From contig CAVPBK010000009.1 in assembly GCA_963701855.1 (NCBI GenBank), forward strand, positions 458,063-522,062: 64,000 nt of DNA, written 5' to 3'. The notes beneath the pieces were generated by a model. It ran no database searches. It was not told where the DNA came from and saw nothing but the letters and a program-made list of their open reading frames with translations. Shown in pieces: positions 49,643 through 51,048 of the stretch. The translations under genes were made by a program, and so were the position numbers. The stretch is from Nitrospirota bacterium (GTDB lineage Bacteria; Nitrospirota; Nitrospiria; Nitrospirales; Nitrospiraceae). How positions within the stretch are numbered: position 1 is the stretch's first letter; each line of letters begins with the position of its first letter.

Positions 49643-49829
49643 GGATCTTCTAACGGCGAGGAGCGTGCCTCTCCGCTGAAGGGCCGCACCGACGTCCGAT
49701 GGTGCCACGCCATTGACCTGCCCCCAAGTGTTAGGCCACCGGTTCAGTTCGCTTACGCCGGGAATGGTCGGCTGGAATCCTGGCTCCAGATCCGACCTGG
49801 TTTAAAGGGGGCAGCAACTGTCTTGGTTG

Positions 49830-50777
49830 TCAAGCACACTGAACCAGTTCTGTGCGCCATGGGGTCCGATGTTTCAGCATCGCATTCAGAATGATCAGCA
49901 GCTTCCGCATACAAGCGGTCAGTCCCACCTTCTTCGTCTTGCCCGCGGCGCGCAGGCGTTGGTAGAACGCACGTATGACAGGATTGAAGCGCGCCGCCAC
50001 GAGCGCGGCCATATAGAGCACGGCCCGGATCTGCGCCCGGCCGCCCCAGACCGTGCGCTTCCCGCGCAATGTCCCGCTGTCACGATTCAGTGGGGCCACC
50101 CCCACCAGCGCGGCAATCTGTTTGCCGGGCAACGTGCCAAGTTCCGGCAGCGTCGCCAGCAGCGTCGTCGTCACCACGGGCCCCACCCCGGGTGCGCTCC
50201 GCAAGAGCGCCTCCTTCTCACGCCACACGGGACTCTCCCGAATCGCCTGGGCCAAGCCGCGGTCCGTGTGGCTCAATTCCCGCTCGAGCCAGGCAATGTG
50301 GGTGCGCAGGCTCTTGCGTACCGGCTTGCCAGCCATCCCCAGGCGGTTCTTCTCCGCCGTCAGCATCTCGACGAGTTGCCGGCGACGCGTCAGGATCGCC
50401 GCCAGTGCCTGGGTCTGCTCATCCGGCAGGGGTCGCGGCTCCGGTCGCATGACCTCGGCGAAGTGCGCCAACGTCTGGGCGTCCAACGCATCGGTTTTGG
50501 CGAGCCGCCCGGTGGCTTTGGCGAAGTCGCGCACCTGTCGCGGATTGACCACGACGACCGGCACCCCGGCGGCGGCCAATACCGCCGTGAGCGGACTCTC
50601 CACCCCGCCGGTGGCTTCCAACACCACCAGCGTGGGGTGCACGGCGTTCAGACGTTCGAGCACCTGAGCAAATCCGGCCTCGTTGTTGGGAGCGGAGAAC
50701 TGCCCCTCCGGTCGGAGGGCGAGGTCCAACTGCGCCTTGGAGATATCAATACCGACAAAGACCTGAGTACTCGTCAT
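49830..50777 (-). CDS. IS110 transposase/bridge recombinase
   Basis: GID, LEATG, KTDALD (DEDD), RDSG catalytic Ser; AAGGAGG upstream. Confidence 0.95.
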
Positions 50778-50789
50778 CACGTCCTCCTT

Positions 50790-50945
50790 GGTGGCCCGGC
50801 CTTGCATGATACGGGCTCAATGGCCCACGCAACTGTTCGGGCTCGTTCCGTAGAAGGGCATGACGACCCTCGCTGCCCCACGGTCTTTGAAGACCTCGGT
50901 CACGTCGGTCTATCATGCCCGGGTTGATGATAAGCTGTATCATTG
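50790..50945 (-). ncRNA. IS110 bridge RNA (predicted; ends approximate)
   Basis: Two stem/internal-loop domains whose loop strands match the reconstructed target and donor sites. Confidence 0.85.
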
Positions 50946-51048
50946 TCGCCTTGGGCGCAAGATACAAGGTCACTTTCCCAATGGACTCCGCTTGCGCGCG
51001 TTTCAGGTCCACGAACTGCGTAAGAGGGCCACTCATACCAGTTGAGTG

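Follow-up and report, generated by a model that had tools for sequence, protein, structure and literature searches.

A probable bridge-RNA element of the IS110 group inserted in terminal inverted repeats of IS3-family elements in a Nitrospirota genome

An insertion sequence of the IS110 group in a Nitrospirota bacterium was found within terminal inverted repeats of IS3-family elements, at a site that matches the predicted guides of its own RNA. One copy lies in a 64,000-nucleotide stretch of contig CAVPBK010000009.1 (assembly GCA_963701855.1, positions 458,063 to 522,062 of the forward strand), which is here called the window and to which all unlabelled coordinates refer. The element very likely works like IS621, with a recombinase, a bridge RNA encoded 5' of the recombinase gene, and a landing site in IS3 ends that is specified by the guides. 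Movement would proceed by RNA-guided recombination via a circular intermediate. No circle junction, excision joint, or joint across the IS110 was seen in the assembled contigs of the sequencing runs. The bridge-RNA mechanism is described for IS621 in passages of PMC11208160, and that of the seekRNA elements in passages of PMC11187229. The mechanism is already known, and what is new is the IS3 terminal-repeat target. A literature search of main texts returned no IS110-family element reported to target IS3 terminal repeats.

The host genome contains four copies of the IS110, namely C9 (the window copy), C6, C13, and C12, which show 1 to 6 differences per 1155 aligned positions and are mutually at least 99.5% identical. 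Because four near-identical copies share them, the boundaries of the element are fixed. Similarity among the copies ends at TGAC-CT on the left and restarts at CT-GCCCCC on the right in all four, and the core CT is present at both junctions of each copy. No terminal inverted repeat was seen by eye in the element ends TGTATCTTGCG and GACAGTTG. The C13 copy (G000:C13:97316-98470) carries two single-base insertions, at element positions 365 and 375, which should break the recombinase frame, and its insertion site is also found on metagenome contig L279.

The likely start codon of the recombinase gene, the ATG at 50777, is preceded by the ribosome-binding site AAGGAGG at 50789-50783; the ATG at 50807 given by the ORF finder falls within the donor guide. 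The protein contains the domains DEDD_Tnp_IS110 (PF01548, E value of 1.4e-28) and Transposase_20 (PF02371, E value of 3e-19), and over residues 13-317 it aligns full-length with the solved bridge recombinases of ISCro4 (E value of 1.1e-43) and IS621 (E value of 4.5e-40). In the alignment of the three proteins, the motifs GID, EAT, and KTDAxDA coincide, as does an SG further on, and these would correspond to the catalytic residues of IS621. Noncoding DNA amounts to 190 nt 5' of the gene, counted from the ATG at 50777, and 15 nt 3' of the stop codon, which indicates the layout of the IS110 group and not that of the IS1111 group. Membership in the latter was rejected, since the structured region lies upstream of the gene and the downstream segment is too short to match. 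The features are listed in Table 1.

Table 1. Positions of the IS110-group element, its predicted RNA, and the interrupted miniature element in the window
Feature	Position	Strand	Remark
IS110-group insertion sequence	49815..50968	minus	1152-nt body 49815-50966 plus one CT core copy 50968-50967
Recombinase gene, 315 aa plus stop	49830..50777	minus	likely start ATG 50777
Predicted bridge RNA region with two stem/internal-loop modules (target-binding, donor-binding)	50783..50925	minus	alignment and consensus fold
Left target guide GTGACC	50898..50903	minus	same sense as the target left half plus first core base
Right target guide GGGGCAG	50873..50879	minus	complement of CTGCCCC (core plus right half)
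Left donor guide ACAGTTGC	50829..50836	minus	matches element right end ACAGTTG plus first core base
Probable right donor guide ATGCAAG	50801..50807	minus	complement of left end CTTGTAT, one G-T wobble
Miniature element, main part (101 of 105 bp), IS3-derived	49714..49814	plus	each half matches a different IS3 end at another place in the genome
IRR-type end (type B) of the miniature element	49714-49758		
IRL-type end (type A) of the miniature element	about 49767-49814		
Last 4 bp (GTCA) of the miniature element, in the right inverted repeat	50969..50972	plus	severed by the IS110
Unoccupied left tip TGACCTGCCCCC	49714..49725	plus	perfect target except T at the preceding base

To characterize the RNA, the first 190 nt of 16 elements were aligned, comprising the window copy and 15 relatives from 100 related genomes. 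The alignment of the 16 sequences has a conserved scaffold with short hypervariable stretches at the guide positions, and its consensus fold consists of two stem/internal-loop modules with 32 pairs, 9 of which show compensatory changes. Folded singly, the window RNA has an energy of -62.9 kcal/mol (z score of -3.56). As predicted, the target loop would specify (G)TGAC-CT-GCCCC and the donor loop the joined ends of the element, ACAGTTG-CT-TGTAT. The position of the left donor guide is kept across the relatives, as is the right end of the element, and the right donor guide is probably ATGCAAG, judging from its complementarity to the left end. A search of the window against Rfam, which lacks a bridge-RNA family, gave no bridge-RNA match. 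The sole match, to sX15 at 50774-50932 on the plus strand, opposite the strand of the bridge RNA, scored 30.1 bits (E value of 0.013) against a threshold of 55 and was rejected; sX15 is an sRNA family of Xanthomonas that may itself derive from an IS110-type leader. A contig from an RNA library spans 50763-50972 and was not accepted as evidence of transcription.

The guides covary with the flanks in 13 relatives. The 13 elements have about 10 different guide sequences. When the reverse complement of the right guide is compared with the right flank, all 8 positions agree in three elements, 7 of the 8 in eight elements, and 6 and 5 of the 8 in one element each, so that a match of 7 or 8 positions is found in 11 of the 13. 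The left guides likewise track the left flanks, among them GTGAC, GTAGC, GGGGC, CCAGC, and CTCC, although some elements show one mismatch. Excluded from this count were L081 and the first row of L089, in which the right end had been placed with a permissive motif and the length of the element did not fit, and L074, in which an internal deletion had misled the right-end motif and the true flank was read separately. Left guides occur in two registers, ending either with the first core base (..CC) or with both core bases (..CT). The first-pass annotation, made from the letters of the window, had proposed that the specificity is built into the target guides, and GTGACC (50903-50898) and GGGGCAG (50879-50873) agree with that proposal.

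The window copy is flanked by GGGGGCAG at 49807-49814 and by GGTCA at 50968-50972. Deletion of 49815-50968, that is, of the body and one AG/CT core, restores GGGGGCAGGTCA, the exact inverse of TGACCTGCCCCC, and yields an element of 105 bp with both tips reading TGACCTGCCCCC, whose right inverted repeat is interrupted by the IS110. This arrangement had been recognized in the first-pass annotation, which also called for a search for empty copies of the miniature element. Such copies exist in two other genomes of the genus (G123 and G114), in which IS110-free units of about 105 bp with both end types lie at other loci and show 82% identity. In addition, a 140-nt contig of run X3 covers 49714-49814 and then continues into unrelated letters. 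These copies and the X3 contig indicate that the 105-bp unit is a member of a family of miniature elements and not a local accident. It is MITE-like, being short and gene-less, with both parental ends, and present at several loci. A 394-bp IS3 derivative occurs twice in G060.

The 12-mer TGACCTGCCCCC is expected 0.93 times in the 4.3-Mb genome and was found in 7 intact copies and in 4 copies interrupted by the IS110. Both inverted 12-mers flank the IS110 region in the window, as they would if they belonged to the IS110 itself as terminal repeats or as an insertion duplication. That explanation deserves almost no credence, since no partner repeat lies about 100 bp from any of the other three copies, the miniature element exists free of the IS110 in G123 and G114, and the 12-mer terminates full-length IS3 elements.

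The miniature element is seated in an apparent intergenic hairpin (49676-49713 and 50973-51000). In relatives, this hairpin consists of the arm GCACCGACG.TCCGATGG followed by its complement, and the second arm is degenerate in the window. To the right of the element lies a PLA1 (phospholipase A1) gene (51049-52108, minus strand) that is broken into at least three frames and is probably a pseudogene. In a search for an orthologous empty locus, the end of the upstream gene was found to be kept in four relatives, and the right flank was not found.

The interrupted repeats belong to the IS3 family. The type A end is the right flank common to the window, C6, and C13 copies, and elsewhere it is followed by a ribosome-binding site and an HTH_Tnp_1 gene 65-72 nt further on. 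The end occupied by the C12 copy, here type C, is the right end of those IS3 copies of the same genome that retain OrfA and rve. When the miniature element was searched against 85 genomes of the genus, full-length elements of 1.22 kb with type B and type A ends were found in G121, G010, G036, and G103. Scanned as stop-to-stop frames, the G036 and G121 copies contain HTH_Tnp_1, rve, and rve_3 domains, with HTH_21 also in G036, and their frames are interrupted. The two-gene layout of the IS3 family, with HTH_Tnp_1 in OrfA and rve in OrfB, is found in the G036 and G121 copies, and OrfA is also found on C5 of the host genome.

The termini are of the form TG...CA, and the tip is equal to that of described IS3 members. 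Comparison of the 12-mer with known IS3 ends, which the first-pass annotation had named as a check, gave identity with two printed inverted repeats: that of IS407A begins with TGACCTGCCCCC in the part of PMC2877748 that lists it (Table 2), and so does that of ISPa32 in the corresponding part of PMC7378034. The ISPa32 IRR continues much like the type B end of the window. IS407A and ISPa32 come from Burkholderia and Pseudomonas, whereas the elements considered here are about 1.22 kb long and mostly decayed, and their likeness to IS407 is one of tip sequence. No target-site duplication of 3-4 bp was seen by eye at seven IS3-type copies (those of G121, G010, G036, and G060 and the miniature elements of the window, G123, and G114), which could reflect old age or a mis-assignment of the tips.

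IS3 elements had been described in the first-pass annotation as abundant, with remnants at 56115, 58724, and 61243. The genome as a whole bears out the abundance, giving 49 matches to rve and 42 to HTH_Tnp_1. Of the three remnants, only the second stands, as an rve and HTH_21 remnant at 58909-59711 on the minus strand; neither a TGA-type end nor an IS3 domain was found at 56115 or 61243.

To locate further insertions with the same guides, public collections were scanned with the 19-nt left-guide context, and 237 loci were collected. The IS110 is present in 15 of them (1 among 117 from genomes and 14 among 120 from metagenomes), with identities ranging from 92% to 98%, and the remaining loci were dropped as chance matches in unrelated DNA. 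The scan loci, the four copies of the host genome, a truncated left-end remnant (C9:2116xx), and G007 together provided 18 distinct left flanks. Sixteen of these end in TGAC, and the other two have the variants TGGC and TGATC. Across the 18 flanks, the base preceding this motif is G nine times, C five times, A four times, and never T. The upstream flank of the unoccupied left repeat of the miniature element had been judged a poor fit to the left guide; the base there is T, which agrees with that judgment. All four insertions in the host genome read TGAC, CT, and GCCCCC in left flank, core, and right flank.

The right flank could be read in seven independent insertions with this guide type, and all seven are IS3-family ends, including both IRL and IRR. 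Type A (IRL) is occupied by the C9, C6, and C13 copies, type C (IRR) by the C12 copy and L259, and type B (IRR) by L266 and L074. The proposal that the guide targets an IS3 terminal inverted repeat is thus upheld by the guide, which equals the IS3/IS407-type tip, and by the flanks. In run X1, one contig leads from the left end of the IS110 into 30 letters that equal the flank of C12:6284. This site, which has G in front of TGAC, carries no insertion in the assembly, and the contig suggests a further, polymorphic insertion. With near-identical copies and such a junction at an assembly-empty site, the IS110 has been recently active. None of the four targets in the host genome is an end of an intact IS3; they comprise the miniature element and truncated ends beside ordinary genes or other IS debris. 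On metagenome contigs L280 and L251, the left end of an IS110 stops after 85 nt at an IS3-type end reading TGACCAGCCCCC...; in this case, an IS3-type element seems to have entered the IS110, which is the opposite of the window arrangement.

The genome also contains 11 empty TGACCTGCCCC sites, of which 3 have G before TGAC and about 5-6 are not recognizable IS3 ends. Since about half of the empty sites are non-IS3, the association is due in part to the distribution of the string and to the tolerance of insertions at a given place. In a rival explanation, the match is a coincidence, the guide being a G+C-rich 12-mer of which IS3 ends supply most copies, with no evolutionary aiming. Of the 15 TGACCTGCCCC sites that the genome contains, about 8-9 are ends of the IS3 type, CTGNCCCC-type right guides are frequent in the clade, and relatives with other guides use non-IS sites: none of nine such loci has IS3 domains, and the elements are sited between ordinary genes. 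We consider coincidence quite unlikely, because all seven readable insertions, in three classes of end and in several genomes and metagenome contigs, are in IS3 ends and because the target covers exactly the stretch common to IRL and IRR.

The junction of the element right end with CTGCCCC was also searched as a pattern in 401 genomes of the order. The 13 junctions found outside the host genome, in 13 other genomes, have ordinary genes downstream and IS3 domains in none of the 13 cases; the guides are mostly lost, and these junctions are no test of this guide type. One is a full element with different guides, two retain only the C terminus of the recombinase, and ten retain only about 30 nt of the right end. 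The ten solo remnants (among L357-L368) consist of about 30 nt, CTTGA..CAAGACAGTTG, abutting CTGCCCC, and neither a recombinase gene nor a donor guide is present within 1.5 kb upstream of them.

In the explanation that we favor, the target string is made up of the dozen bases at the very tip of IS407-like inverted repeats of the IS3 family. Because the guide reads such a tip, the element lands in the left and right ends of IS3 elements and in miniatures derived from them. Insertion takes place 4 bases from the tip, with the right end of the element always facing the IS3 interior, and IS3 ends would serve as a dispersed and harmless landing pad, as REP repeats do for IS621.

An insertion there would detach the cleavage tip from the inner portion of an IS3 repeat and would thereby inactivate the end concerned. 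The IS110 could be an antagonist in an arms race, with a guide that tracks IS407-type IS3 tips and disables the ends and with IS3 lineages that escape through changes of the core bases on which the recombinase would depend (CT to CG, CA, or TT). The repeat is indeed split 4 bases from its tip. Moreover, the tips of gene-retaining IS3 copies (TGACCGGCCCCC, TGACCAGCCCCC, and TGACCTTCCCCC, with several IRR-type tips reading TGACTTGCCCCC) deviate from the target in the core or at a neighboring position, and the perfect IS3-type tips are all on remnants or miniature elements. These deviations are equally compatible with escape and with ordinary variation. The sample is small, and positions 4-7 of the repeats vary anyway among the IS3 ends of this genome. 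The relative ages of the two elements also bear on the question. Among the type A remnants, three occupied and one empty, 35-45 of 50 aligned columns match (70-90% alike), whereas the IS110 copies are at least 99.5% alike, which indicates that the insertions followed the decay. Recent insertions in old targets argue against the IS110 having caused the decay of the IS3 elements, and no intact IS3 carrying an IS110 was found. We therefore regard antagonism as unlikely, and the earlier suggestion that the IS110 probably immobilizes IS3 elements is not sustained, as the occupied ends are never those of an intact IS3 and the insertions are younger than the decay of the remnants. If antagonism were nevertheless true, it would be a case of one transposon policing another, and the IS110 would be a naturally occurring suppressor of an IS family with a wide distribution among bacteria.

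Under the favored explanation, of a landing pad read by the guide, the element is a natural case of a bridge-RNA system programmed against the terminal repeat of another IS family. The 12 bases of the target also end IS407A and ISPa32 in proteobacteria. The clade offers a ready series of naturally reprogrammed guides with matching targets, and it suggests two testable rules, namely a preference at the base ahead of TGAC and a CT core that is strictly required.

The closest known systems are IS621 and ISCro4, which are like the window element in the full-length similarity of the recombinase, the position of the RNA upstream of the gene, the two guide loops, and the CT core. Compared with the guide geometry of IS621, the window element has a shorter left guide, of 5 bases and one base of the core, and a longer right guide, of the core and 5 bases. 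The targets also differ, with IS621 inserting into a REP sequence and the window element into the tip of an IS3 repeat.

Terminal repeats of another transposon are also used by IS4321 and IS5075, which reportedly insert into the terminal inverted repeats of the Tn21 family, a finding attributed to Partridge and Hall (2003). Their target is a 38-bp repeat of the Tn3 family. As members of the IS1111 group, both elements have subterminal repeats and an RNA downstream of the gene, whereas the window element is of the IS110 group. Their targeting of Tn21-family terminal repeats is also cited in a passage of PMC11187229.

According to the part of PMC11187229 that deals with it, ISEc21, another member of the IS110 family, targets a conserved stretch within IS3-family transposase genes. 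ISEc21 and the window element are thus alike as IS110-family elements with a natural target inside IS3-family elements (PMC11187229). In that account, the ISEc21 target comprises the codons around the DDE motif's second D in the IS3 transposase, whereas that of the window element is the terminal inverted repeat. With its target in the terminal repeat, the window element, unlike ISEc21, can use remnants and gene-less miniatures. Finally, ISPpu9, ISPpu10, ISPa11, and ISKpn4, members of IS110/IS1111 that target REP or attC sequences, resemble the window element, in the published passages that describe them, in using short dispersed repeats as landing pads. According to the same passages, they use REP or integron sites of the host, whereas the window element uses the ends of another mobile element.
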